Part shown: positions 52,159 to 64,000 of the stretch, piece by piece
Layout: the number at the start of each line of letters is the position of its first letter
How positions within the stretch are numbered: the stretch's first letter is position 1
DNA from: Candidatus Bathyarchaeota archaeon
Lineage (GTDB): Archaea > Thermoproteota > Bathyarchaeia > Bathyarchaeales > Bathycorpusculaceae
Assembly: GCA_963828195.1 (NCBI GenBank)
Contig: CAWHDT010000002.1
Location: forward strand, 14,391-78,390
Reading direction: 5' to 3'
Length of the DNA: 64,000 nucleotides
Notes under the pieces: generated by a model
Databases searched by the model: none
What the model was told of the DNA's origin: nothing
What the model saw: only the letters and a program-made list of their open reading frames with translations
Made by a program: the position numbers and the translations under genes

Positions 52159-54633
52159 ATGCAGCCTATGCCAAAAGAATACAACTTTGCCGAGATTGAG
52201 CGTAAGTGGCAAAGTAAATGGGAAGAAATGGGCATTTACCATTACGATTGGAACGACAAAGAGCGGGTTCCCTTCAGCATTGATACGCCGCCGCCTTACC
52301 CGTCAGGCGAGCTGCACATGGGCAACGTGCTCAACTGGACTTATTTTGATATGGTTGCACGCTTCAAGCGCATGCAGGGCTTCAATGTGCTTTTTCCGCA
52401 GGGCTGGGACTGCCACGGCTTGGGCATTGAAATCCAAGTTGAAAAAGCCAGAAACATACGCAAACGAGATGTTCCTCCTGACCAGTTCCGCGCTTGGTGC
52501 ATCGAGCTGGTTGAAAAATACATTGCGATGATGAAGGAGGGTATCCTGAAGATGGGGGCAAGCATAGATTGGACCACCGAATACAAAACGATGGACCCAG
52601 ACTACTGGCGCCGCACCCAACTTAGCTTTGTTCTGCTTCACCAGAAAGGTTTCATGTACCAGGGCACTCACCCAGTGAATTGGTGTCCACACGACGAAAC
52701 CGCTATAGCTGACGCAGAGGTTGACCACATAAAAAAAGATGGTTTTCTGCACTACATTCGTTTCCAGCTTGAAGGCAGCAACGAATACCTGCTTATAGCA
52801 ACCTCGCGACCCGAATTCATCCCTGCCTGCGTTGCAGTGGAAGTCAACCCGGCTGACGAGCGCTACAGCAAATACATCGGCAGAAAAATCGCTGTGCCCC
52901 TGATGAACCGCGCTGTAACCATCATAGGCGATGACTGCGTTGACACCAAATTCGGCACAGGAGTCGTGCAGATCTGCACTTACGGAGACAAAGAAGACGT
53001 TAAAACCGTCATAAAACACAAACTCCCAGTCATCCAGCTCTTAACAGAAACCGGCCAAATCAGCGAAGCAGGCTGCAAATACGCAGGCAAATACGTTAAC
53101 CAAGCCCGCGCAGCCATCGTTGAAGACCTCACCGCAGCAGGGTTGCTGGAGAAAACAGAGAAAATCCAGCATGAAGTCGGAGTCTGCGACCGCTGCAAAG
53201 CCCAAGTTGAAATCTTAGAAGTCAAGCAATGGTTCATGAAAACCATGCCGTTATCCGAGGCGGTGGAGAAAGCCGCAAACGAGATCCCATGGTACCCAGA
53301 CTACATGAAAAACCGCCTCATCGACTGGACCCGCGCGCTGGATTGGGATTGGGTTGTTAGCCGCCAAAGATTGTTCGCCACGCCGATCCCAGTTTGGTAC
53401 TGCAAAAGCTGTGGCGAAGTTATTGTTGCCCAAGAAAGCTGGGTGCCGATTGACCCGCGAATGGAAAAACCCAGAATAGATAAATGCCCCAAATGCGGCG
53501 GAACCGAATTTAGCGGTGAACCCGATGTTTTGGACACGTGGATGGATTCCTCAATCACCTGCGCTGTCCACGCTGGCTGGCCTGACCGAGCGGACTGGAA
53601 GCACCTGTTCCCCGCAAGCATGCACCCATCAGGCACAGACATCATCCGAACCTGGGCCTACTACCTTATGGTACGTCACTTAGCCCTATTCGATGAACGC
53701 CCATTTAACAGCGTCCTCATAAACGGCATGGTACTTGGCGCTGACGGCAGAAAAATGAGCAAGTCACTCAAAAACTACGCTGCCGCCCCAGAAGTTCTCA
53801 ACAAGAACGGCGCCGACGCAGTCAGGCAATGGGCTGCAGCTGGAGGAGCAACAGGATCAGACATTCCTTACCGCGCCCAAGATGTTGAATATGGCAGGCG
53901 CTTCTTAGTTAAATTGTGGAATGCATCGGGTTTCACCGCTAGCCTCTTAGCTGACTACAAACCTGTAAACGTCAAAGATTTGAATCTTCAGCCGCTTGAC
54001 AAATGGATATTAAGCAAAGCTGAAAACATAACCAAAAAAGTCACCGATGAATTTGAGAAATGCCAATTTAACGTTGCCATCGAAGACGTACGCAATTTCA
54101 CTTGGCACGTACTTTGCGATTACTATGTTGAAGCAGTAAAAGATAGGCTCTACAACCCAGATTTGCATGGACAACCCAAAAAGTTGGCAGCTCAATACGC
54201 CCTATACGAGGTTCTGTACCGCATGCTGCAGCTACTTGCGCCCGTAACTCCTCATGTCACTGAAGAGATTTACCAGCACATGTTCGCAGCTGACAAGGGT
54301 TTTGAGAGCCTGCAGGTTTCGCCTTGGCCAAAATTCAACGCGGCGCTCGTGGATGAGGCGGCAGAGAAGAACGGCGACTTAATCATCGCAATCATCGGTG
54401 AAGTGCGTCATGAGAAGGCAGAGAAAAAACTGCCGCTGAACGCTCCAGTCAAAAACCTGGTTGTTTACGCTGGAGACGATGAGACAGCGAAAATTATCTG
54501 TTCAGCCAGCGGAGACATCGCAGGAACCTTGAAAGTAACTAACATAGAAGTGGTTGCTGAAAAAACCAGTGAAGGACGCCAAGTCTGCCCTTACAATGTG
54601 AGCATCAAAGTTGAATACGAGGCTAAAGTGTGA
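52159..54633 (+). CDS. valS: Valine--tRNA ligase (archaeal type)
   Basis: DTPPPYPSGELHMGN, WDWVVSRQR, DTWMDSS, KMSKS. Confidence 0.96.
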   Translation: MQPMPKEYNFAEIERKWQSKWEEMGIYHYDWNDKERVPFSIDTPPPYPSGELHMGNVLNWTYFDMVARFKRMQGFNVLFPQGWDCHGLGIEIQVEKARNIRKRDVPPDQFRAWCIELVEKYIAMMKEGILKMGASIDWTTEYKTMDPDYWRRTQLSFVLLHQKGFMYQGTHPVNWCPHDETAIADAEVDHIKKDGFLHYIRFQLEGSNEYLLIATSRPEFIPACVAVEVNPADERYSKYIGRKIAVPLMNRAVTIIGDDCVDTKFGTGVVQICTYGDKEDVKTVIKHKLPVIQLLTETGQISEAGCKYAGKYVNQARAAIVEDLTAAGLLEKTEKIQHEVGVCDRCKAQVEILEVKQWFMKTMPLSEAVEKAANEIPWYPDYMKNRLIDWTRALDWDWVVSRQRLFATPIPVWYCKSCGEVIVAQESWVPIDPRMEKPRIDKCPKCGGTEFSGEPDVLDTWMDSSITCAVHAGWPDRADWKHLFPASMHPSGTDIIRTWAYYLMVRHLALFDERPFNSVLINGMVLGADGRKMSKSLKNYAAAPEVLNKNGADAVRQWAAAGGATGSDIPYRAQDVEYGRRFLVKLWNASGFTASLLADYKPVNVKDLNLQPLDKWILSKAENITKKVTDEFEKCQFNVAIEDVRNFTWHVLCDYYVEAVKDRLYNPDLHGQPKKLAAQYALYEVLYRMLQLLAPVTPHVTEEIYQHMFAADKGFESLQVSPWPKFNAALVDEAAEKNGDLIIAIIGEVRHEKAEKKLPLNAPVKNLVVYAGDDETAKIICSASGDIAGTLKVTNIEVVAEKTSEGRQVCPYNVSIKVEYEAKV

Positions 54634-55370
54634 ACGTAAAAAAAGTCGGTTTGATTGGCTGCGGCGTAATAGGCACCGTAATTGCAGAAGCCATAGAGCG
54701 AAAACTTGTAGAGTGCCGAGAACTGGTTATCTACGATGTTGACCCTTCAAGAGCACAGGAGCTTAAGGCTAAACTTGATTTTCCCGTATTGATCGTTGGA
54801 AGCGTTGATGAGTTACTTGCCCAAAAACCCAAAGTCATTGTGGAAGCAGCCTCACAGCAGGCGGTAAGAGATTACGTGGCAAAAATCGTTTCCTCAGGAC
54901 TCGATCTAATCGTGATGAGCACCGGTGCATTACTTGATCTAGACATTAATTCAAGCAAAATTCATTTTTCTTCAGGAGCCATCGGCGGTTTAGATGCCCT
55001 CTCCGGCGCAGCACTAGCGGGAATTGACGAAGTTGTTCTGACGTCACGCAAAAACCCCAAAGCCTTCGGAGTATACAATACGCAAGAAAAAGTAATTTAT
55101 GAAGGCTACGCTGAAGAAGCAGCAAAAAAGTTCCCGCGGGAAATGAATGTAGCCGCGACTTTAGCGTTAACGGTTAAACCAGCCAAAGTTAAAGTTCGAG
55201 TGGTCTCAGACCCAGCGGTGAAACGGAACACGCATGAGATTGAGGTTAAATGGCGGTTCGGCGAGATGTTTCTGCGTTTCGCAAACGACCCGCACCCAGA
55301 CAACCCCCATACCAGCGCGCTAGCAGCGTGGTCAGCCATCAAATTGTTGCAGACACTCCTAAAAACCTAA
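54630..55370 (+). CDS. nadX: L-aspartate dehydrogenase
   Basis: GCGVIG, VEAAS, SGAIGGLD, FPREMNVAA, NTHEI, NPHTSALAA. Confidence 0.9.
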   Translation: MNVKKVGLIGCGVIGTVIAEAIERKLVECRELVIYDVDPSRAQELKAKLDFPVLIVGSVDELLAQKPKVIVEAASQQAVRDYVAKIVSSGLDLIVMSTGALLDLDINSSKIHFSSGAIGGLDALSGAALAGIDEVVLTSRKNPKAFGVYNTQEKVIYEGYAEEAAKKFPREMNVAATLALTVKPAKVKVRVVSDPAVKRNTHEIEVKWRFGEMFLRFANDPHPDNPHTSALAAWSAIKLLQTLLKT

Positions 55371-55610
55371 ACCTCAGCCTTTCGGCAACAACCAAAAAAT
55401 CACCTATTTTGCCAAAAAAATCAGGAACAAAAAAACGCAAATAAAACCCTAAACCAAAAAAACAACCTGAATTAAGCCCTGAATCCGACCAGCCTACCCT
55501 ATGAGAGGGTCTAGTATTTGTGCCAAAAGCCCAACACAAATATGGGTTCCACAAAAATACAACTAAAAATTTACTACAAAAAATAAAAAGAAAAGAAATA
55601 AAGAATACGT

Positions 55611-57155
55611 TTATTCGCTGTTTTTACTGGAGTCTTCGGTTTCTGTTGCGGCGGTTTCTTCGCTGTTTTGCTCTGCTGCTTCCGTCTGCCCCAGATGTGG
55701 GGCCTCTAAAGGGTGGGCTGGAAGTGTAGTCTCCTCGACCATGATTGGAGCGACAAAGGTTTCTATTGTTGGTTCCATTACTTTTTCAAGGGTTATCTCA
55801 ATCGGAGCTGATTCTGGAATAACCTCAAAATCCTGCAGGTCCTTAACTGTTGTCTGTTCGGGTTCTTCTTCGGCAATCATTTCAGCTGGAGCAATCTCTA
55901 CTATTTGAGCTTCAGCTTCGGGCTGCTCAATTGTTGGCTCAACGGCAACTTCGACTGGCGTAACAATTTCTGTTTCAGCTTCCATCGAGGGCTCTTCATG
56001 TACAGGCGCTGGTTCTTCTATTGGGGCGGCTTCCAAGTTTATGATTGGTTCTTGCGGCGCGGGCTCAGTCACTTCTGGTTCTGCTGGGGCAATTTCAGGC
56101 GCTGGCTCATTTAATAGTTGGACCTCTGGTTCGGGGGCTGCAATTGGAGCTGTTTCTGTCGGAGCTGGGTTTTCAATTGGGGCCTCTTCGATTGGGGCTT
56201 CAAATATTGGAGCTTCTGCAGGGGTTATCTCTATGTGAGCTGTTTCAATGCTTGGAGTTTCTATCGGAGCAGCTTCAACAACGGGAGCTTCAACTGGAGC
56301 GGCTTCGGCAACTGGAACTTCAACGACTGCAGTGGTCTCGACTGGAGTGACTTCAACGGGAACAGTCTCTACTGTTGGAGTTTCAACGGGGGCAGTTTCA
56401 ACTGGAGCTTCAACAACCGTCTCAACTTCTGGGGCTACATCGGCTTTTGCGACTTCGATTGGCGCTGTTTCAACTGCAGCAGTTTCGATTGGAACTTGAA
56501 CAGTTTCTATTGGCGCTGGTTCTACGGGCGCTGTTTCCACTGGAGCGCTTTCCGCCGTCGCCATTTCTGCTTTTACAGTTTCAATAGGAATTTCAGCAGG
56601 GGCAGCTTCAATTGGGGCGAGAGTTACTGGCGATGTTTCCACTGCAATTTCAACTGGGGCAGCTTCAACAGGAGCCTCAATTGGAGTTGGTTCTACCGGC
56701 GCTGGCTGCACAACTTCGATGACTGGAGCAACTGGTTCCGGGGCTGCGGGAGCCTGCATTGTGGGAGGTGAGGTTAGTTGGTTTGCGGATTGTTTGATTG
56801 TGTTTAGTTCGTTTCGGGTTGTTTCTAATCCGGTTGTGAGCAGACCTATTTCTTGCTGATAAATTGCTTCGTCGATTTCTCCGACTACATGTTGAATTTC
56901 ATAGTTAGCAAGAAGTGTTTCTAACGTTTTGATTTGATTTTCCAGTTCCTGAGTTTTTATTGCCATGTTTTCAATTAGTTCTTTCTGCTGCTTTTCGATT
57001 TCCAAAATTGCTGCGTTGATGTCGTTGGTAAATGAGTCACGGGTGGATTGTGAAATTTTGCCGCTTTCTAAAAGCCTGTCTAGCGCTTGCTTCTTTTTAT
57101 TAGCTATTTCGTATTCTTCGTTTAATCGTTTAAATGTATATTTCCATGAAATCAA
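55611..57155 (-). CDS. CdvA-like coiled-coil protein with a long acidic P/E/A/V/T-rich tail
   Basis: KKKQALDRLLESGKISQSTRD...LANYEIQHVVGEIDE resembles the CdvA coiled-coil region; then about 390 aa of APVE/APIE repeats; TTG start after GGTG. Confidence 0.72.
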   Translation of the reverse strand: MISWKYTFKRLNEEYEIANKKKQALDRLLESGKISQSTRDSFTNDINAAILEIEKQQKELIENMAIKTQELENQIKTLETLLANYEIQHVVGEIDEAIYQQEIGLLTTGLETTRNELNTIKQSANQLTSPPTMQAPAAPEPVAPVIEVVQPAPVEPTPIEAPVEAAPVEIAVETSPVTLAPIEAAPAEIPIETVKAEMATAESAPVETAPVEPAPIETVQVPIETAAVETAPIEVAKADVAPEVETVVEAPVETAPVETPTVETVPVEVTPVETTAVVEVPVAEAAPVEAPVVEAAPIETPSIETAHIEITPAEAPIFEAPIEEAPIENPAPTETAPIAAPEPEVQLLNEPAPEIAPAEPEVTEPAPQEPIINLEAAPIEEPAPVHEEPSMEAETEIVTPVEVAVEPTIEQPEAEAQIVEIAPAEMIAEEEPEQTTVKDLQDFEVIPESAPIEITLEKVMEPTIETFVAPIMVEETTLPAHPLEAPHLGQTEAAEQNSEETAATETEDSSKNSE

Positions 57156-57548
57156 TTTTAGTGCACCGAACACCTTTAACGTAAAAGAAGAGATAACGTT
57201 TCTTAACATGCACGTATATCGCTGAATAGTAAAAATGGATATTGAGGCGGAAAAATAGAAGTTTTGCGTTAAATTTGTCTTATGCCCCTGAGCGGTTATG
57301 TATATGAAAAATGAAAATTTTTTACCCTGTGCTTCAGGGCTATGACATTTCCATGTCAAATAGCTAGGCTTCGCTGTCCTGCTATGGCATCATATGTTAA
57401 AATGTGCAGGGCCTATTTGCGACGATGCAAGCTTCTTCACAGGTTTAATATGTTTATACTTTTCAGTTTTTGTTACAATATATTATTCTAAATCCGAATA
57501 AGTCTTATATATCTAAACACGAATAAACATTAGTGAGCGTGAAAAAAC

Positions 57549-57920
57549 ATGGTAGCATTAACAATAACAGTAAACAGCGAAAAATCAGAAGCAAGAATAC
57601 TAAAAAAAATGCATGAAAAAGTCATCAAAAGCTTCATGGACACAATAATAATGGGCGAACTACAAAATGGACCCATAAGCGGATACGACGTCATATCATT
57701 CATACACAACAAATTCGGCTTCCTCGTCAGCTCAGGCACAGTCTACTCACTCCTATACTCGCTTGAAAGAAACGGCCTCGTTGAAGGAGTATGGATCGAA
57801 AGAAAAAGAGTCTACAAACTCACCGAAAAAGGCTCAAGAACCATCGAAACCATACTTAACTCGCAGGATAAAATCAAAAGCTTCATGACAACCATCCTAA
57901 GAGCTCAGACAATCCAGTAA
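57549..57920 (+). CDS. PadR-family regulator
   Basis: GPISGYDVI...SSGTVYSLLYSLERNGLV...RVYKLTEKG. Confidence 0.92.
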   Translation: MVALTITVNSEKSEARILKKMHEKVIKSFMDTIIMGELQNGPISGYDVISFIHNKFGFLVSSGTVYSLLYSLERNGLVEGVWIERKRVYKLTEKGSRTIETILNSQDKIKSFMTTILRAQTIQ

Positions 57921-57999
57921 ACTATTTTTTTATCTCTTTTCTAATCGAAACGCTAAAAAAGCCCTTCTTGTTTTCCTATCAGTCCGCAACAACTAAAGC

Positions 58000-58074
58000 G
58001 GGTCCGTAGCTCAGTCAGGCTAGAGCACCGGACTTTTAATCCGGGGGTCGCGGGTTCAATTCCCGTCGGACCCG
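58000..58074 (+). tRNA. tRNA-Lys(TTT)
   Basis: Acceptor GGGTCCG/CGGACCC, anticodon arm CCGGA-CTTTTAA-TCCGG, T arm GGTTCAATTCC. Confidence 0.95.
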
Positions 58075-58314
58075 CCCCTGCACAACTACATTTATACTGA
58101 ATCTTCCGCTTTCTCCCCTCTCTTTTTTTAGTTTAAAATTAGTTAGCGTACGCTCCAGAATAGACGATTTTTCAGGGAAAGAACTTCGCTGTATGGATTG
58201 CTTTTTTTGGTGTGGCCGCTGCTCTGAGCCCACCTTGAAAGGTAAGAAGTCAATTGGTCAAATAGCTTCAAGCAGCGCTTGCTCTAAGCTCCAGCCCAGA
58301 GGAGGCAGCCCTAA

Positions 58315-58578
58315 ATGAGCTTTGCCGCCGATTCGTTTAAGCCTCCATGTCTTCTCGGATACTATCCCTGCCTAAGTAATCCATCATCGAAAGACTGCGG
58401 AGTATTGGATACTTGTTCTAAGGACTTGTTTTTCTGCAAGTTTGCAAAGTTGGCGTTGGCTGATGGAACCGATATTTCTTGTAAGCGGTACAGTTTTGCT
58501 AATCGACATTGTACGCATGGAGGCGGCTCTTGTCCTGGGCGGGGAGCTCTTGAGCATCGACGTTTTGGAGGAAGGTAA
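58315..58578 (+). CDS. Small Cys-rich hypothetical protein
   Basis: GGAGG upstream; 8 Cys; stop abuts the next gene. Confidence 0.4.
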   Translation: MSFAADSFKPPCLLGYYPCLSNPSSKDCGVLDTCSKDLFFCKFAKLALADGTDISCKRYSFANRHCTHGGGSCPGRGALEHRRFGGR

Positions 58579-58580
58579 CG

Positions 58581-58826
58581 ATGATTCAAAACGGCGATGG
58601 TTCAATAAAAGACCGAATTAAATCTGATGTTTTACAAGAAATCCAGCGCGTCTTACTAACATACGAAGAAAGAATCGCTGTTCTAGAAAAAGAAAACCGA
58701 CTGCTTTGGGAAGAAAACCGAAAACTTTGCAGTACGTTAGATGACCTAACGCTTTACATTGATGCTTTTGAGGAAGAAATGAAAGCGAAAATAAATGATG
58801 CCTTATCCAACTGGACGGAGCTTTGA
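58581..58826 (+). CDS. Small coiled-coil hypothetical protein
   Basis: SD GGAGG; heptad pattern; TTGA overlap with the next gene. Confidence 0.6.
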   Translation: MIQNGDGSIKDRIKSDVLQEIQRVLLTYEERIAVLEKENRLLWEENRKLCSTLDDLTLYIDAFEEEMKAKINDALSNWTEL

Positions 58827-59746
58827 TTTTTTTGGTTGAAGATCAAAGTACAAAAGTCGGTGCTGAAAATGCTCAAAGTACAACTAGACATCAAGCAACA
58901 GGTTGCGTGCAGTTTGATAGCGATAAAGTCCGCACATGGGTTCTTCCTCTGATGAAGCGCATTTACGCGGGTGATTACCCCACGCAAGCTGGCAAAATCT
59001 TGGGTTTAAGCCGTTCCCACGTATGGTACTACATCGGCAAGCTAACAAAAGCCGGCCTAATCTACCAGGAGAAGCGCAGCAGTGCAACTTTTTATGCCCT
59101 TACAACTGAAGGCTCAAATCTTCTCAAATCATGTGAGGGCAGAGTTTTTCCAGGCGAGTTGCACAGGTTAGACAAATGTCAGGTGTCATTTAAGATTCTG
59201 GCAGAGGGACGTTATCCTGATGGAAAGTTCAAGGCTGTAGAAATGCAGAATTGGACCGCTCTTTTGGGCTTGGAACAGGGCGTTAAGGTTAGGCATACTT
59301 CAAAGAGTTGGATTATTCATGTGCCAGTGATTCGCGGTAAGAATCCGGCAGAAGTTTACGGTTTAGCCATGAACCTGAGTAATCGTATTGCGGTGGCTTT
59401 GGCGAAGAAATATGGAGTTGTCTTTGCTGAGGGGTCGTTTTGTGGCGGCGAAATGGCTGTTGAGGATCCTATCGCAAAACTGTTCGGCAGATACTTTAGC
59501 GTAAGAGCGGGGCGTCGCAAGATTGATCACAGTTGGGGCGAGGGCGAACTTGAGAATATCGGCAAAGACGCTGCGATTGATTACATGCAGATGCCTGAGA
59601 AAGTCAAGAGTATCAACAAGAAAGTGGATCGGCTTGAGATTAAATTTGAGCGGCTAATCGAAGCCCTTGGCCAAGTAGACAATTTTGAAGCTGACCCGAA
59701 AGGGCTGGCTGAAGGACAAAGAAAACTTGGAGAGTACACCGTTTGA
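58823..59746 (+). CDS. Winged-HTH protein with an uncharacterised C-terminal domain
   Basis: PTQAGKILGLSRSHVWYYIGKLTKAGLI...YALT.EG; C-terminal IDHSWGEGELE. Confidence 0.75.
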   Translation: MIFLVEDQSTKVGAENAQSTTRHQATGCVQFDSDKVRTWVLPLMKRIYAGDYPTQAGKILGLSRSHVWYYIGKLTKAGLIYQEKRSSATFYALTTEGSNLLKSCEGRVFPGELHRLDKCQVSFKILAEGRYPDGKFKAVEMQNWTALLGLEQGVKVRHTSKSWIIHVPVIRGKNPAEVYGLAMNLSNRIAVALAKKYGVVFAEGSFCGGEMAVEDPIAKLFGRYFSVRAGRRKIDHSWGEGELENIGKDAAIDYMQMPEKVKSINKKVDRLEIKFERLIEALGQVDNFEADPKGLAEGQRKLGEYTV

Positions 59747-59803
59747 CGTCGGTTATTTCTGCACTAATGGCAGTTAAAACCTGTTCAAAAGCCATTTCAG
59801 CAT

Positions 59804-60394
59804 ATGACCTTGGGCATGGGAAAAGTCCGTGCTTTTCACAAGTCACTTTTCTGCAACTATTTGGTCCTGATTACCCACAGTCAATTTTGCGCTGTGTTGA
59901 TGTTGGAGAATTCTTGGAGTGTGCACTCTGATATGGAAAACGCTGAAAAACCTGTTCAAAACCCCAAAAAAAAGCGTAGCCAAAGCGACAAAATAGGCCG
60001 CTTGAAGTACAACCAGCAACTACTAAAGCAAACCTTGACGGAAATCGAAAATATAAAATTAATGCTCCGGACTATTTTTGCTGGTCTAAAGGGTTCCTTC
60101 AATTTCGAGCAATCACTGATAGAACGTACAGCATGCTTCGACGATGTAGATCGAGAAATCCTGCGTTTGCTCTTCGAAGCAGGGTTACCTGGTTTACTGC
60201 CTAAAGATTTGCAAGCGCAACTCATTGGATTCAATGTTACCCGTCACCAGATAAGCAGAAGAATTCTAAAAATGAATAAGCGAGTAGAGAACGAATTAGG
60301 AGAACATTTGGCTGAAAAAAGGGGCTGGCATTGGTCTCTTACACGCTTTGCTTACGAAATTTGGGGAGAAACCATTAAACTATCTGAAGATTAG
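59804..60394 (+). CDS. Hypothetical protein with C-terminal winged helix; true start possibly 59933
   Basis: DDVDREILRLL...LPKDL...TRHQISRRILKMN...WSLT. Confidence 0.65.
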   Translation: MTLGMGKVRAFHKSLFCNYLVLITHSQFCAVLMLENSWSVHSDMENAEKPVQNPKKKRSQSDKIGRLKYNQQLLKQTLTEIENIKLMLRTIFAGLKGSFNFEQSLIERTACFDDVDREILRLLFEAGLPGLLPKDLQAQLIGFNVTRHQISRRILKMNKRVENELGEHLAEKRGWHWSLTRFAYEIWGETIKLSED

Positions 60395-62109
60395 TTATTC
60401 TTATCTTTGCTCAAAAAATTGTAAACTTTTCGGAATTGATTTGTTGTTTGCGAGTATGGTTGCCTAATTTGATACCATAATAAGGCAAGTATGAAACCGC
60501 CGATGAATCCTAATCCGTGCGCAAAAACATTGACGCCTGGTCCAACGTTAAGAAAGATCAAAGGCTCAGAAATTATTACGATGAAAAAAACTGCAAACAG
60601 GATGAGATTGAATATGCTAAACCCGATTAATTTCATTTTTGCAACCTCACTAGTCTCTTTGCTTATGTCCTTTAACCTAATTGTGTTCAACAAAGAAAAG
60701 CCTAAAACTGTTCCTTGTAAGGCAAAAACTAAACCAGAAAGCCCCACAACTCCCATTGTTGGAAAAATAGATATCCAAAGAATGTTTGCAAAAACTGCAA
60801 GTAAAAAGGCTATTAAGAGAATGAATGAGCTTCGCTCAATTTTCTCTTCGTTAGAAATAAATGAATTAGAAAAAACAAACAGTAACACGAGCCCAACCAG
60901 ACCCAGCAGATTTTGCCAAAGATGACCGAGGCTTGAATGAACAAATAGAGATGTAATTACTCCCCACGGAGTTTGAGCTGAAGCAAGCAAAACATTAGCT
61001 AGAACTGGGAAAATAACACAGTTAACATAAACCACAACACAACTGACGACTATAAATGAAGTTGCCAAAAAGACCGCTTTAAATGGTTTAAACGTATTTC
61101 CTAAAAAAATGGATCCGTAGAAGCTAGTTTTGTTCCGATCTAAAACCCATTTAAATCCTCTCACTAAATCAATTGCTATCCAAACCCCAAGAATCTCGAT
61201 CATAGAAATTTCTATCCGGGTCAGAGTAGGCGGTGCAAAGTTCCTAACAGTAAAAAGATATGCAAAAGTTGCAAGTAAAGCACCAGAAAAAATCTTGACT
61301 CTTTCATCAGGTTCTCCGAAACGCAGTTGTGTGATTGCGAAGATAGACCACAATCCAAGTATAGGTACAAGAACATACATCGAAAGCCAAAGCAATGACT
61401 CATTATTTCTTATCATTGAAATCTGAAATTCCAAACCCCATGCGTTATTCAGGTTAGAGGAGCTTGCTCCAATGTAACTTGTCCCGAGCAGGGATTTGAT
61501 ATCGCTTGGCGAAAGTTCCTTTATGTAACTGAATGTGGCAGAAAAGCCGGTTGGAATTTGCGAATTCAAGTTAAATGAGCTGAAAGTAAACTTAGACATG
61601 CTTGTTTGGTTATTGCTAAAAGCTATAATCATCCGATTAGTTTCATAAATATCAAAAGGGAAGGCGAAGGGATCATATTTTTCAAGAAAATCGCCCAGTG
61701 TCATATAGCTGTTCCAAGAGGAATATGTCGCACTGTAATTTGCTGTACTGTACGTATCTTCATAGGGCGAGCCCTGCATTTGCATGGGGATGACCATTAC
61801 TTCGCTATAATTGCCAAATGCCGGTTGGTATTCAGAATAAGTCATGCTTACGACTTCGTCACTTTCGGCTGTACAATTTACTGTGAGAGAATACGAGTTA
61901 TCTTGGAGATTGTTCTTGGTAAATGTTAGTTCGATTGTTGCTATGCCAAGTGGTGGTGAAGGTTGATCGCTAAAATTTGTTGCCCCAACAGATATATTAG
62001 AACTTGCAGCATACAAAGGAGCCAATGCGCCTACAATCACTCCTAAAAATAAACACGGCATTAGTATGAGGGAAATGAAGGCCAAAGTTATCGTAATTCT
62101 TTTGTCCAT
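60391..62109 (-). CDS. Rhomboid intramembrane serine protease fused to an N-terminal Pro-loop channel-like module
   Basis: C-terminal PWGVITSLFVHSSLGHLWQN, GLSG, AHGLGFIGG; N-terminal signal, beta-rich ectodomain with FPFD, then three TMs. Confidence 0.8.
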   Translation of the reverse strand: MDKRITITLAFISLILMPCLFLGVIVGALAPLYAASSNISVGATNFSDQPSPPLGIATIELTFTKNNLQDNSYSLTVNCTAESDEVVSMTYSEYQPAFGNYSEVMVIPMQMQGSPYEDTYSTANYSATYSSWNSYMTLGDFLEKYDPFAFPFDIYETNRMIIAFSNNQTSMSKFTFSSFNLNSQIPTGFSATFSYIKELSPSDIKSLLGTSYIGASSSNLNNAWGLEFQISMIRNNESLLWLSMYVLVPILGLWSIFAITQLRFGEPDERVKIFSGALLATFAYLFTVRNFAPPTLTRIEISMIEILGVWIAIDLVRGFKWVLDRNKTSFYGSIFLGNTFKPFKAVFLATSFIVVSCVVVYVNCVIFPVLANVLLASAQTPWGVITSLFVHSSLGHLWQNLLGLVGLVLLFVFSNSFISNEEKIERSSFILLIAFLLAVFANILWISIFPTMGVVGLSGLVFALQGTVLGFSLLNTIRLKDISKETSEVAKMKLIGFSIFNLILFAVFFIVIISEPLIFLNVGPGVNVFAHGLGFIGGFILALLWYQIRQPYSQTTNQFRKVYNFLSKDKNN

Positions 62110-62271
62110 TTAAGCGGCACTTCAATCGTTCTATTCTAATACCTTGCTTATATATTTGGAACCAAGGCGATAGTTTGTCGATTTGGCTGCCAAGTTATAA
62201 GTAGAATTACCCAAAAGCAATAAATCTTTAAAGAATTTGAACGATATTATGGAAGTCCGAGGTAGCGTTGT

Positions 62272-63162
62272 TTGAAAACCTCAAAAATCCTCGCAGCAAC
62301 TCTCGCTTCGCTTGGAATTATTCTTCTGATAGTAGTAGCTTTGCAAAAAACAGGCAACATTAGTGTAGTTCCTAGCGATATCATTGGTATTTTGACAATT
62401 TTGAGCTTAATTGCCACGATTTCGGGTTTCATCCTTCAGGTTTTACTGCTTATTAATGAACCGCGTTTGTCGTTTCTAAGTTACCGAGAAATTCCACTTC
62501 ACCGTGCAGTCGAAGTGGAAATTATTCACAGCGGTGGCAAGTTTCGGTTAAAACTCCTTGTTACTGGAATCAAGAATATTGGCGGGCGGTTTAGCAAATG
62601 CGCTGAAAGATGCGAAGTTGACTTAATGATGCCTGATTTAATTCCTCGCCGGCTTCCTTTTCGAGTAAACAAGAAGGTACAGGTAAAAGTGGATCATGAG
62701 GTGAATGCTGAATCGGCTCAAGAGATAGTTGATGCACTAAATTCGACGCTCTTCCTGGATAGGGAAGTTGATGTAAAGAGAGACCAAACTCTTCAAACAA
62801 TCATCGGCTTTTTTGTTGAGACTGGGAGATTCTATTTCGCAACTGAAGACGCCATCGAATTACCACTTTCAAAAGGAGATATGGTATTGGGAGCAACACC
62901 ATTTTACCTTACGGCAAAAGGAAAAAACTTTTCAATGACTGAAAACTCAAGCAGGATGGTGGTAGGTGGAAATAGTTGGAAAGATGCCCAAATAGGTTTT
63001 GTGGAAAAAGATGAAAAGATTTCTGACAATGAATACTCTAGTCTCATACATTTCCCTGAATATATCCAGCTTAACGAAAAAGCAAAACGCATGCTGAGCG
63101 ACTCTATAAAGACTGTTACTCCGATTGCGGAATGGATATCTAGTACACAAAATTCCAATTAG
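62272..63162 (+). CDS. Hypothetical membrane-anchored protein
   Basis: Two N-terminal TMs followed by a soluble domain; 296 aa. Confidence 0.65.
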   Translation: MKTSKILAATLASLGIILLIVVALQKTGNISVVPSDIIGILTILSLIATISGFILQVLLLINEPRLSFLSYREIPLHRAVEVEIIHSGGKFRLKLLVTGIKNIGGRFSKCAERCEVDLMMPDLIPRRLPFRVNKKVQVKVDHEVNAESAQEIVDALNSTLFLDREVDVKRDQTLQTIIGFFVETGRFYFATEDAIELPLSKGDMVLGATPFYLTAKGKNFSMTENSSRMVVGGNSWKDAQIGFVEKDEKISDNEYSSLIHFPEYIQLNEKAKRMLSDSIKTVTPIAEWISSTQNSN

Positions 63163-63250
63163 TCAAGACCAAGACTCTGATTAATGGTTTCGTTGTTAAA
63201 ATAAGATCGTACACTGGGTTTTCTGTAAGATTTTCAGTGCAACTTTTCCG

Positions 63251-63907
63251 ATGACATACATTCCTAAAAGGAAAGGCATCAAGAAATTACTCATACTGAA
63301 AAAGGCTGATCCAATATTAACAAACGGTGAAATCAGCAAATCTTTCCATGTTGACGTTTCCGCAAATGTTAACGAAGCAAATTGTGGTAAAATGACGGAT
63401 TATCTTCGCTGTATGGAAGAACAAAAAGCAAAGAAGACAAGTGATATTCAAGGTCTTTCAAGTAAGTACAACTTCCCCGTTGACTTTCTCAAGGAAGCTA
63501 TTCAATCAATAAACAAGCTCAACGAGAAAGAGCGTCACAAGAAAATGGTCTCGAAATTCAAACAGGAAATAATTGATTACTGTAAAAAAAATTACCATTA
63601 TCCCGTAGATAGAGATTCAATTAGAGTTGATATAGACCCAGAATTGACAGCTCTTTCGCAATTGTACTTAGAAAACAAATGGCCTCCTATTTTTAGGCAC
63701 TGGCAAGTCTTGGGCGAGCAACAAAATGCTTCTGAGGTGAAGTCCGCTGAATGGCAAAGAAATATTGGCTTTGGAGTCGCTATCGCTGTTTGGGTTCTTT
63801 TGGTGCTCGGTGCTTTCATTTTGAAATATTCAAGCTGGTTTTTTATTCTTTGGAGCTATATTATTTGGTTCTTATTTTGCTGTAATCCTCGGGATATTTG
63901 GTCGTAA
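63251..63907 (+). CDS. Hypothetical protein with C-terminal TMs
   Basis: 218-aa ORF ending in hydrophobic segments. Confidence 0.55.
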   Translation: MTYIPKRKGIKKLLILKKADPILTNGEISKSFHVDVSANVNEANCGKMTDYLRCMEEQKAKKTSDIQGLSSKYNFPVDFLKEAIQSINKLNEKERHKKMVSKFKQEIIDYCKKNYHYPVDRDSIRVDIDPELTALSQLYLENKWPPIFRHWQVLGEQQNASEVKSAEWQRNIGFGVAIAVWVLLVLGAFILKYSSWFFILWSYIIWFLFCCNPRDIWS

Positions 63908-64000
63908 GTATTTCAAGAAATACCAGAATGGTTCTAAATCAACTACTCCATCCAAATAAAATGGGTCTGAAAACCTCTATAATAGTTTGTTTTTAGCTTT

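Follow-up and report, generated by a model that had tools for sequence, protein, structure and literature searches.

A gene from a Bathyarchaeia genome joins a divergent pentameric-channel-like module to a rhomboid protease domain

Introduction

Can a receptor of the ion-channel type and an intramembrane protease be parts of the same polypeptide? The question is raised by one gene in a stretch of 64,000 nucleotides from a Candidatus Bathyarchaeota archaeon (hereafter the window). The original prediction, made from the sequence alone, recognized in it a module resembling the pentameric ligand-gated channels (pLGICs) followed by a complete rhomboid. Two heavily studied membrane-protein superfamilies would thus be joined in one chain, and their pairing could tie extracellular sensing to proteolysis within the membrane. 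The regulation and substrates of prokaryotic rhomboids are largely obscure, and for that field a rhomboid joined to a receptor-type ectodomain is a case in which signal-controlled proteolysis within the membrane can be tested directly. For the channel field, it represents a natural pLGIC-like subunit that lacks the helix M4, has an apparently permuted N-terminal helix and carries an enzyme in M4's place; it bears on the purpose of M4 as well as on outputs, other than ion flow, of the allosteric machinery of the fold. The prediction knew of no described fusion of this kind, and a literature search likewise found no description in print of a channel-like module fused to a rhomboid.

One gene with two halves

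The gene occupies positions 60391..62109 of the minus strand (stop codon included), the strand to which all the coordinates of its parts given below also refer. It is a single frame of 572 aa with an ATG start and no stop inside, and it has seven full-length relatives (460-570 aa, 42-46% identity), all of which carry the rhomboid family PF01694. Every motif quoted in the original prediction was found again in this frame and its coordinates were re-derived: AFPFDIY at aa 149-155, ISMIRN at aa 230-235, YVLVPILGL at aa 245-253, DERVKIFSGALLATFAYLFTVRNFAPPTLTRIE at aa 268-300, GLSG at aa 456-459 and AHGLG at aa 530-534. Residue conservation indicates that these motifs are more than chance, both in an alignment of 35 rows, made of relatives with 15-50% identity to the window protein and used for the residue counts given here, and among the eight fused proteins.

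As far as the architecture alone is concerned, we are highly confident of a single genuine gene whose product, a membrane protein with ten predicted helices, is composed of a channel-like half (aa 1-335) and a rhomboid predicted to have six of them. The first half runs from an N-terminal anchor helix through a ten-strand ectodomain with a P-x-D loop and a pre-M1 Arg to M1-, M2- and M3-like helices, and lacks M4. M3 is then connected to the rhomboid through a cytoplasmic linker, ~10-20 residues long. The junction with this linker (aa 326-345, 61075..61134) is covered by contig pieces of two sequencing runs, X1 and X2, and four Lys and Arg residues fall within aa 322-346.

The N-terminal half has a pLGIC-like fold

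In the N-terminal half we see a relative of the pLGIC (Pro-loop) superfamily that is member-like but very divergent. The AlphaFold2 model of aa 1-335, built with the 35-row alignment (pLDDT 89.9, pTM 0.85), consists of a ten-strand ectodomain followed by three membrane helices, that is, a beta-sandwich ectodomain that runs straight into M1-M3 helices within one subunit. A Foldseek comparison with ELIC and GLIC, as the prediction had proposed, was run with this model against the PDB and, at E <= 0.001, gave at least 500 matches. Those listed include ELIC, GLIC, DeCLIC and sTeLIC as well as GlyR, GABA-A and other Cys-loop subunits; ELIC 6hjy_B ranks first (E 4.3e-11, probability 1.00, ~300 columns). 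When VIA-align was applied to the 1000 best chains of Foldseek, Z reached 9.7-10.4 over 217-240 residues, with residues 48-328 of the model paired with GLIC 11-286 at an rmsd of ~6 A. A search independent of Foldseek, covering 48,161 chains, aligned at least 200 residues in 20 of its best 50 rows, and 19 of these 20 are of pLGIC type by title. In particular, the nAChR pore chain 1oed_D superposes on M1-M3 of the module with an rmsd of 2.4 A over 82 residues (Z 9.6). The superposition of whole subunits is loose (TM-score 0.32-0.43 and rmsd ~11 A by Foldseek; rmsd 5-7 A by VIA-align), and in the wide search the pLGIC matches, with Z 8.3-10.1, do not rise above generic three-helix bundles (Z up to 10.9). 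The full-length model is poor (pLDDT 51.6), yet Foldseek still puts pLGICs first with it (E 8e-7), and pLGIC chains fill its list of matches. All in all, the pLGIC-like fold proposed for this half is borne out by the model, by the Foldseek and VIA-align matches and by the hallmark residues described below. A complex prediction with three copies of aa 1-330, run without controls, gave a score of 0.30 and a mark of 0.42 and is not used as evidence here.

The hallmark residues can be followed along the chain. The first segment is the membrane helix TM0 (aa 3-37, 61999..62103; helix pLDDT 89-93), in which P18 is present in all 25 relatives having that region. TM0 is probably retained as an anchor rather than cleaved, with the N-terminus in the cytoplasm. 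The ectodomain (aa 48-234, 61408..61968) is, by its predicted strands, a ten-strand beta sandwich like the extracellular domain of pLGICs, aligned from GLIC residue 11 onwards; six of the eight N-x-S/T sequons of the protein fall within aa 38-235. The Pro-loop motif F-P-F-D (aa 150-153, 61651..61662) lies between strands 126-141 and 160-166, and its P151 and D153 are each conserved in 34/34 sequences, with F or Y at the first place in 24/34. In the superfamily, this motif reads [F/Y]-P-x-D and forms the tip of the beta6-beta7 loop, its Pro being 100% conserved (PMC4795631, Table 1), and the fusion protein carries it in a loop of the beta6-beta7 type. The pre-M1 Arg position is taken by R234 (61408..61410; 35/35), the final residue of the last ectodomain strand, for which a salt bridge to the Pro-loop Asp is putative.

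Modelled next to it is the M1-like helix (aa 236-263, 61321..61404), with Y245 (35/35) and the M1 Pro, P249 (31/35). The M2-like helix (aa 267-288, 61246..61311; R270 35/35, G276 33/35) is the best-conserved segment, as in pLGICs, with a mean column entropy of 1.39, whereas the ectodomain and the other helices have 2.2-2.4. In the register that we infer, R270 would provide the basic residue at 0' next to an acidic residue at -1', with G276, L279, A283 and F286 at 6', 9', 13' and 16'. The M2-M3 loop carries R289 (35/35) and P293-P294, with P293, the loop Pro, in 29/35, and it leads to the modelled M3-like helix (aa 298-333, 61111..61218), whose W310 is invariant (35/35). Indeed, the most conserved positions of pLGICs (PMC4795631, Table 1) are the invariant or near-invariant positions of this family, and they follow one another in the order seen there, at similar distances: D153 to R234 spans 81 residues (70 in GLIC), R234 to P249 spans 15 (12), and P249 to P293 spans 44 (43).

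Thus, the module resembles the prokaryotic pLGICs GLIC, ELIC, sTeLIC and DeCLIC in its ten-strand ectodomain and in the M1-M3-like helices after it. Unlike these channels, it shows in the model a helical insert (aa 201-220) before the last ectodomain strand, it has an extra conserved membrane helix at the N-terminus, and it bears a C-terminal enzyme; a pentamer and a current are putative here. The extra domains of DeCLIC are reported to be N-terminal and periplasmic. A further difference concerns M4, a helix that all pLGICs described so far possess. In the fused form, M3 is followed by rhomboid TM1, and the prediction had suggested that this helix doubles as M4. The suggestion is weakened by the stand-alone modules (~295-343 aa), which end ~10-25 residues past M3 with no fourth C-terminal helix and carry the conserved N-terminal helix instead. 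TM0 is the likelier fourth helix and a candidate stand-in for M4.

The relationship is one of fold and hallmark residues, and sequence-level searches return no pLGIC. PF02931 and PF02932 had no match to the protein (E <= 1) or to 20 relatives (E <= 10), and PF02932 none in the organism's own genome (E <= 0.01). With PF02931, neither 401 genomes of the phylum nor 14 control genomes gave a match, so that this search has no positive control. In the PDB, phmmer with the whole protein found 0 chains. Three chance-level matches there (E 0.8-1.0; Mediator and the BMX kinase among them) came from a profile built on 20 modules, stand-alone and fused; they were rejected, and no pLGIC was among them.

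The C-terminal half is a divergent rhomboid

The second half (aa 337-546, 60472..61101) is a rhomboid domain with six predicted membrane helices, assigned by PF01694, a family for which we take E. coli GlpG to be the type rhomboid (MEROPS S54). PF01694 scores 33.6 bits over aa 380-546 against a cut-off of 22.6; in a six-frame search of the genome it scores 37 bits here vs 94 bits for the other rhomboid, a protein of 210 aa. The motif H391-x4-H396-x3-N400 of TM2 (60910..60939) is conserved at each of the three residues in 8/8 fused proteins. The catalytic Ser motif G-L-S458-G (aa 456-459, 60733..60744) has G456, S458 and G459 each in 8/8, and in the catalytic His motif A-H531-G-L-G (aa 530-534, 60508..60522), H531 is likewise found in 8/8, as is G537 after it. 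The Ser-His dyad, with G-x-S-G on TM4 and His on TM6, is thus accompanied by the TM2 motif, and with PF01694 above its cut-off the domain is, judged by its residues, the intact rhomboid with a complete catalytic set that had been predicted.

In other respects the domain is unlike typical rhomboids, being very divergent and joined to a receptor-like module of 335 aa. Between TM1 and TM2, the loop of rhomboids carries a W-R motif; here the loop ahead of TM2 has an invariant W382-G383, a putative equivalent. Solved rhomboids were found in the PDB neither with the single protein nor with a profile of the eight fused proteins (0 chains). Assignment to the rhombosortases (TIGR03902) was rejected at 27 bits against an NCBIfam cut-off of 84. 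The six helices appear in the low-confidence model alone, with pLDDT 45-69 in this half. Loop charges are consistent with an N-in, C-in rhomboid topology: Lys and Arg number four in the linker, five in the TM4-5 loop and five in the tail, all on the predicted cytoplasmic side, and none in the three predicted outer loops.

Possible functions of the fusion

Our best guess, which we hold tentatively for the mechanism as a whole, is an intramembrane protease controlled by its ectodomain. The channel-like modules would assemble into a ring, probably of five, and the proteases would sit at its lipid-facing rim, where M4 normally sits. The ectodomain would sense something extracellular, and the movement that opens the pore in ordinary pLGICs would pass via M3 to the attached rhomboid, which would in this way be controlled as to which membrane proteins it cuts, or when. 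In its most specific form, which is possible and rather doubtful, a five-fold ring of pLGIC type would use the superfamily's conserved machinery for coupling ectodomain and membrane to switch five covalently attached rhomboid active sites, instead of or besides opening a pore. If this were true, extracellular ligand binding would lead directly to membrane-protein cleavage; such a signalling output has never been described for the pLGIC fold, nor such regulation for rhomboids. A precedent is YqgP (GluP) of B. subtilis, a rhomboid with an attached extramembrane sensor, whose cation-sensing N-terminal domain steers target cleavage (PMC7231995). The sensor of YqgP is a small cytosolic metal-binding domain, whereas here it would be a four-helix membrane module with a large channel-type domain outside.

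The protein might instead be mainly an ion channel in which the rhomboid has replaced M4 and serves the channel, for instance by trimming the anchor helix as the protein matures, by subunit turnover or by lending lipid-facing outer helices. The conservation of M2 fits such a role; in the inferred register, its acidic -1', Arg at 0', small residues at 6' and 13' and hydrophobic ones at 9' and 16' look like a pore lining. Bacterial pLGICs have a short M3-M4 loop, and the linker between M3 and rhomboid TM1 is short as well. Moreover, gene fusion commonly serves to unite an enzyme with its partner, and a stand-alone rhomboid of the same subtype occurs (P0053, 245 aa, 40% identity). One relative, P0015, has Tyr at the places of both H391 and H531 and has apparently lost both histidines while keeping the fold, so the family as a whole may not require proteolysis. 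Against this, the invariance of the catalytic residues in 8/8 full fused proteins argues for real proteolysis over a purely structural role. In addition, the stand-alone modules manage without a C-terminal fourth helix, so that a replacement of M4 is not needed, and the anchor helix would run from N-in to C-out, an orientation that usual rhomboid substrates do not have. We consider a channel served by its rhomboid unlikely.

A second alternative gives up gating: the module would be related to pLGICs by descent or by shape and would work as a platform for oligomerisation or substrate recruitment, perhaps of the DUF4436 kind. The absence of M4, the loose superposition and the absence of a pLGIC Pfam match would agree with such a scaffold. 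The original prediction had itself named a relative of DUF4436 (PF14494), a family of uncharacterised membrane proteins of similar length, as an alternative for this half, and here the evidence is divided. The PF14494 model has no match to the protein, to 20 relatives or in the organism's own genome, whereas an ESM Atlas feature search gives as nearest two clusters of bacterial hypothetical proteins in which 14% and 25% carry PF14494. These two clusters score 0.89 (201 shared features) and 0.88 (195), which is to be read as a lead only. On the fold or function of DUF4436, the literature search found incidental mention and no dedicated paper. The residues that are invariant in the family are those of the interface that couples ectodomain and membrane in pLGICs, and a passive scaffold need not keep them, which speaks against a platform without gating; we regard it as improbable.

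Genomic setting

The fusion gene is a rare, accessory cargo in variable DNA rich in mobile elements. The last conserved chromosomal feature ahead of the variable segment is a tRNA-Lys (UUU) at 57999..58077 of the plus strand, whose 3' end is not repeated within 57500-64000. A neighbouring module of small ORFs (58190..60375, plus strand), including a 307-aa winged-helix protein, is multicopy: 15 of 25 same-genus genomes contain it (65-90% DNA identity), often more than once, and it occurs at more places in the source genome; its HTH matches fall below the Pfam cut-offs. The fusion gene lies between this module and the end of the contig at 64000, 1.9 kb away. No part of 60376-64000 was found in the 25 same-genus genomes, and among 401 genomes of the phylum the family profile matches in the source genome only.

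Such a location would suit a conflict system, that is, cargo of a mobile element for defence or competition that opens a pore or cuts a membrane protein on sensing a virus or a rival. Among the neighbours at related loci are a GmrSD/NsnA-like nuclease and a Schlafen AlbA_2 protein at L007, a DDE transposase at L004 and a resolvase at L005. However, a location in variable DNA indicates mobility and not function. PADLOC has no match for the protein, the single PHROGs match is weak (E 9.4e-4) and of unknown function, and short-pattern scans of genome contigs and viral contigs, which can miss distant relatives, found none. Nor is a partner gene conserved: all-against-all BLASTP with the ORFs of six related loci and of the window at 54001-64000 found no neighbour in common with the window, and hence no candidate substrate either. 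A role in conflict is accordingly very unlikely in our view, and an ectodomain-controlled protease remains the reading that we prefer. Apart from the fusion gene itself, the sole cross-locus BLASTP match was an antisense shadow ORF inside it.

Reality and distribution of the fusion

The fusion is not private to this genome, and the search for the same architecture elsewhere that the prediction had called for yielded, besides the seven full-length relatives, six metagenome loci that represent three lineages. The idea that two genes were merged, whether through misassembly or through the private loss of a stop codon, which the nearby contig end and the low read depth in public runs might have favoured, is close to refuted, since the architecture recurs in these independent proteins and loci, at 43-46% identity, with no stop at the junction, and since the contig pieces of runs X1 and X2, which come from two studies, span the junction with 0 differences. 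No RNA holder of the gene was found among the 11 runs listed.

In the tree, a single branch (support 97/92), nested among stand-alone forms, holds the fused rows. Apart from one Bathyarchaeia genome bin, the stand-alone module was seen in metagenomes only. Members of the N-terminal family are named "hypothetical protein" in their sources and were previously unannotated, and the family broadens the range of the pLGIC fold within archaea. A further word-index search with the family profile added one new protein.

Open frame and predicted fold of the N-terminal module

The fusion gene is a single open frame of 572 codons that starts with ATG and lies on the minus strand (60391-62109), and all the strings quoted in the original prediction are found in it. 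When sub-ranges of the window were translated, the motifs were located, all on the minus strand, at 61651-61662 (Pro-loop FPFD), 61408-61410 (pre-M1 R234), 60910-60939 (rhomboid H-x4-H-x3-N), 60733-60744 (GLSG) and 60508-60522 (AHGLG). The stop codon overlaps by four bases (60391-60394) with that of the convergent 196-aa ORF (59804-60394), thus leaving no space for a terminator between the two genes.

AlphaFold2 modelled the full-length protein poorly with the eight fused rows (pLDDT 51.6), and the N-module, aa 1-335, with 35 rows at pLDDT 89.9 and pTM 0.85. The latter model begins with a long N-terminal helix (aa 3-37) followed in order by ten strands, with a short helical insert (aa 201-220) before the last strand, which ends at R234, and then by three helices (aa 236-263, 267-288 and 298-333). 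Upon comparison of this model with the PDB, Foldseek found 500 or more matches with E <= 0.001, with ELIC, GLIC, DeCLIC, sTeLIC, glycine, GABA-A and other Cys-loop subunits among those listed. The best match reached E 4.3e-11 and probability 1.00 over about 300 columns; TM-scores in this search were only 0.32-0.43, and the rmsd about 11 A. VIA-align on Foldseek's best 1000 gave Z 9.7-10.4 with 217-240 residues aligned; in particular, model residues 48-328 matched GLIC 11-286, the ectodomain through M3, at an rmsd of about 6 A. A search made without Foldseek over 48,161 representative chains was less clean, as generic three-helix bundles scored up to Z 10.9 on the helices alone. Among the 50 rows listed, 20 align at least 200 residues, and 19 of these are by title pLGIC-type subunits (pLGIC, pentameric ligand-gated ion channel); the one left over, an OST subunit, has an rmsd of 21 A. 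Thus, among the rows listed, the two-domain architecture is paralleled solely by pLGICs. From that search, 1oed_D, a pore chain of nAChR, superposed on M1-M3 at an rmsd of 2.4 A over 82 residues. The domain-to-domain placement in the predicted monomer is loose.

Conserved residues and probable kinship with ligand-gated channels

A stronger argument for pLGIC kinship than the fold searches is provided by the conserved residues. According to Table 1 in Jaiteh et al. 2016 (PMC4795631), the sites most conserved in pLGICs are the beta6-beta7 loop motif F/Y-P-x-D (100% for P and 93% for D), the Arg before M1 (94%), the Pro of M1 (77%) and the Pro between M2 and M3 (88%); the same source reports a basic M2 0' residue in 79% of pLGICs and a gathering of the most conserved positions at the ectodomain-membrane interface. 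In the N-module alignment of 35 rows, P151 and D153 are found in 34/34, R234 and R270 in 35/35, P249 in 31/35 and P293 in 29/35. As judged from the alignment, the invariant or nearly invariant columns are the most conserved pLGIC positions, and the pLGIC-like fold originally proposed for this region is thus upheld by the hallmark residues together with the Foldseek and VIA-align scores. Y245, F282, R289 and W310 are also invariant (35/35 each). These residues are similar to those of GLIC in order and spacing: the D-to-R distance is 81 residues in the fusion protein and 70 in GLIC, R to M1 Pro 15 versus 12, and Pro to Pro 44 versus 43.

Several results speak against membership of the pLGICs. 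PF02931 and PF02932, the pLGIC models of Pfam, had no match in the fusion protein or 20 relatives, nor PF02932 in the genome, and no PDB pLGIC chain was found by sequence, either by phmmer with the protein or with the family profile. Moreover, pLGICs have an M4 helix, whereas the N-module has none. It had been proposed that the first rhomboid helix, TM1, may double as M4; the short linker from M3 to TM1 would still set the rhomboid at the rim, beside M3, but stand-alone relatives carry no helix past M3. Since all of these have the N-terminal helix, with P18 invariant (25/25), this helix, modelled at pLDDT about 90, is a likelier fourth helix than TM1, and like pLGIC M4 it would run from inside to outside. 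If so, the helix bundle would be circularly permuted.

The N-module as a family of its own

The N-terminal half belongs to no family in Pfam or NCBIfam. When 1.84 billion cluster representatives were searched exhaustively by phmmer with aa 36-335, 34 proteins came up at E <= 0.001, 20 of them at E <= 1e-10. Most of these are 295-343 aa long and end soon after the third helix, which indicates that the module also occurs alone. No Pfam threshold was reached by any of ten stand-alone modules or by any of the 20 rows of an N-module alignment, and in their sources the proteins are named "hypothetical protein", or "membrane associated rhomboid family serine protease" if fused. The stand-alone module is an unannotated pLGIC-like family without M4.

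Two relatives, P0026 (432 aa) and P0041 (431 aa), join the channel-like module to another extension at the C-terminus, about 100 aa long, with additional hydrophobic stretches and no Pfam match, and so the end of M3 seems to be a recurrent attachment point for other membrane domains. A "Candidatus Bathyarchaeia archaeon" bin is the source of one stand-alone relative whose C-terminal extension differs.

The rhomboid half

PF01694 matches aa 380-546 with 33.6 bits (cut-off 22.6), and H391, H396, N400, G456, S458, G459 and H531 are each conserved in 8/8 rows of the fused-protein alignment. In agreement with the complete rhomboid first described, with GLSG and AHxxG, the C-terminal half is thus a rhomboid with a complete catalytic residue set. 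The NCBIfam rhombosortase model reached 27 bits, well under its cut-off of 84. The domain is divergent, as no solved rhomboid was found by sequence with the single protein or with a profile of the eight fused proteins. The genome also encodes an ordinary rhomboid of 210 aa (94 bits versus 37 for the fused copy), so the fused one is an extra copy. Lysines and arginines number 4 in the M3-TM1 linker and 5 each in the TM4-5 loop and the tail, with none in the three predicted outer loops, a distribution that fits the usual rhomboid topology.

P0015, a fused form of 411 aa with a cut N-terminus, keeps G-A-S-G, with Tyr replacing both H391 and H531. This protein is possibly a pseudoprotease of the fused family, and proteolysis may then be dispensable in some members.

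Predicted function

Upon the predicted topology, the fold class of the first half, full catalytic set of the second and conserved covalent link between them, a tentative reading can be placed in which the ectodomain controls the rhomboid; we regard it as possible, somewhat short of an even chance. The N-module would assemble into a ring, as pLGICs do, and its ectodomain would sense a cue from outside. Movement may then be relayed to M1-M3 by P151, D153 and R234, the invariant coupling residues, and the rhomboid, tethered to the M3 end at the lipid-facing rim, would thus be switched or granted substrate access. YqgP, described as a rhomboid under the control of an attached sensing domain (PMC7231995), is a precedent.

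M2 is the most conserved segment, with a mean column entropy of 1.39; the ectodomain and the other helices have 2.2-2.4. With R270 as 0', the places of M2 that usually face the pore would be acidic at -1', variable at 2', Gly at 6', Leu/Phe at 9', Ala at 13', Leu/Phe at 16' and Asn/Gln at 20', a prime numbering anchored only by ELIC mutant names among the Foldseek matches. 

Among the rival readings, a channel with an attached protease that acts in the service of that channel appears unlikely. A non-gating scaffold, perhaps related to DUF4436, is likewise doubtful. The DUF4436-like alternative raised at the outset is in part favoured by ESM Atlas features, whose nearest clusters are bacterial hypothetical proteins, 14% and 25% with DUF4436, at scores (0.89 and 0.88) under the tool's trust line, but PF14494 has no match in the fusion protein, 20 relatives or the genome, and DUF4436 receives only incidental mention in the literature searched.

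No description of a pLGIC-rhomboid fusion, of which the original prediction knew none, was found in the literature searched, which covered few subscription journals; neither "fused" nor "ion channel" occurs in the available text of a rhomboid-superfamily review from 2025 (PMC12615303). The finding is real and the architecture newly joins two known kinds of protein, with a function that is predicted.

Genomic setting

The source genome is archaeal and comprises 2.83 Mb in 9 contigs (96% complete), and the contig ends at window position 64000. A minus-strand gene (55611-57359) encodes 582 aa with a CdvA coiled-coil domain and a long proline-rich, extensin-like stretch. Matching DNA repeats at 579-nt spacing in relatives (four copies in contig C16 of genome G409), which suggests that this gene of cell-division type has a tandemly repeated, length-variable part.

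A tRNA-Lys (57999-58077) immediately precedes a 2.2-kb module of small ORFs (58190-60375; 87, 81, 307 and 196 aa, the 307-aa product being winged-helix-like). In the complete same-genus genome G403 (L015, G403:C1:1525400-1534000), a 449-aa ORF with a tyrosine-recombinase-like domain (Ndc10_N) comes after the same tRNA, and about 7 kb downstream there is a 28-nt copy of the tRNA 3' end, thus suggesting that the tRNA is a recurrent integration site. Copies of the small-ORF module, 65-90% identical in DNA, occur in 15 of 25 other genomes of the genus, often more than once in each, and on three other contigs of the source genome (C6, C9, C3); it appears to be the constant part shared by a family of integrated or plasmid-like elements whose cargo varies. 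In G414 other genes come after the module.

None of the 25 genomes has a match past query position 2275 (window 60375); accordingly, the fusion gene and two further ORFs, of 296 aa (62272-63162) and 218 aa (63251-63907), are not found in them. The family profile matches this genome only among 401 genomes of the phylum (0/10 in the genus), with no match in five further same-genus genomes in a search that had a positive control. The two ORFs contain hydrophobic stretches and are unmatched in Pfam, PADLOC and PHROGs. They encode putative membrane proteins beside the rhomboid and are its sole local candidate substrates; they are not conserved at related loci.

Among those loci, the neighbours at L007 encode a GmrSD/NsnA-like nuclease and a Schlafen AlbA_2 protein, at L004 a DDE transposase, and at L005 a resolvase and an M48 peptidase, with none in common with the window. 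The fusion protein had no match in PADLOC and one weak match in PHROGs, and a role in a conflict system is quite improbable. Given this distribution and its element-rich, variable setting, it is a rare, accessory gene and probably a mobile cargo, a status that says little on its function.

Reality and origin of the fusion

The search for the same architecture elsewhere, proposed with the original prediction, returned seven relatives of 460-570 aa (42-46% identity), all with PF01694, and six metagenome loci encoding the fusion in three lineages that are mutually 66-80% identical and 43-45% identical to the window. In addition, 14 short contig pieces from four soil-metagenome runs in three studies show zero differences over the gene. 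The junction (61075-61134) is spanned by piece 3 of run X1 (61048-61521) and by piece 7 of run X2 (61008-61197); as X1 is possibly the source sample, X2 alone counts as independent support. With relatives sharing the architecture and the X2 piece crossing the junction without a difference, an artefact, be it an assembly join or a privately lost stop, is scarcely conceivable.

In a maximum-likelihood tree of 33 rows, midpoint-rooted only and built without the two short rows P0013 and P0015, the eight fused rows are separated from the rest by a branch (support 97/92) that nests within the stand-alone forms, and the deepest of the fused rows is the window's copy. By these comparisons the fusion is genuine and, on the present data, arose once. 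A stand-alone rhomboid of the same subtype, P0053 (245 aa), is 40% identical over aa 343-542, and its Met start lies 15 residues ahead of TM1.
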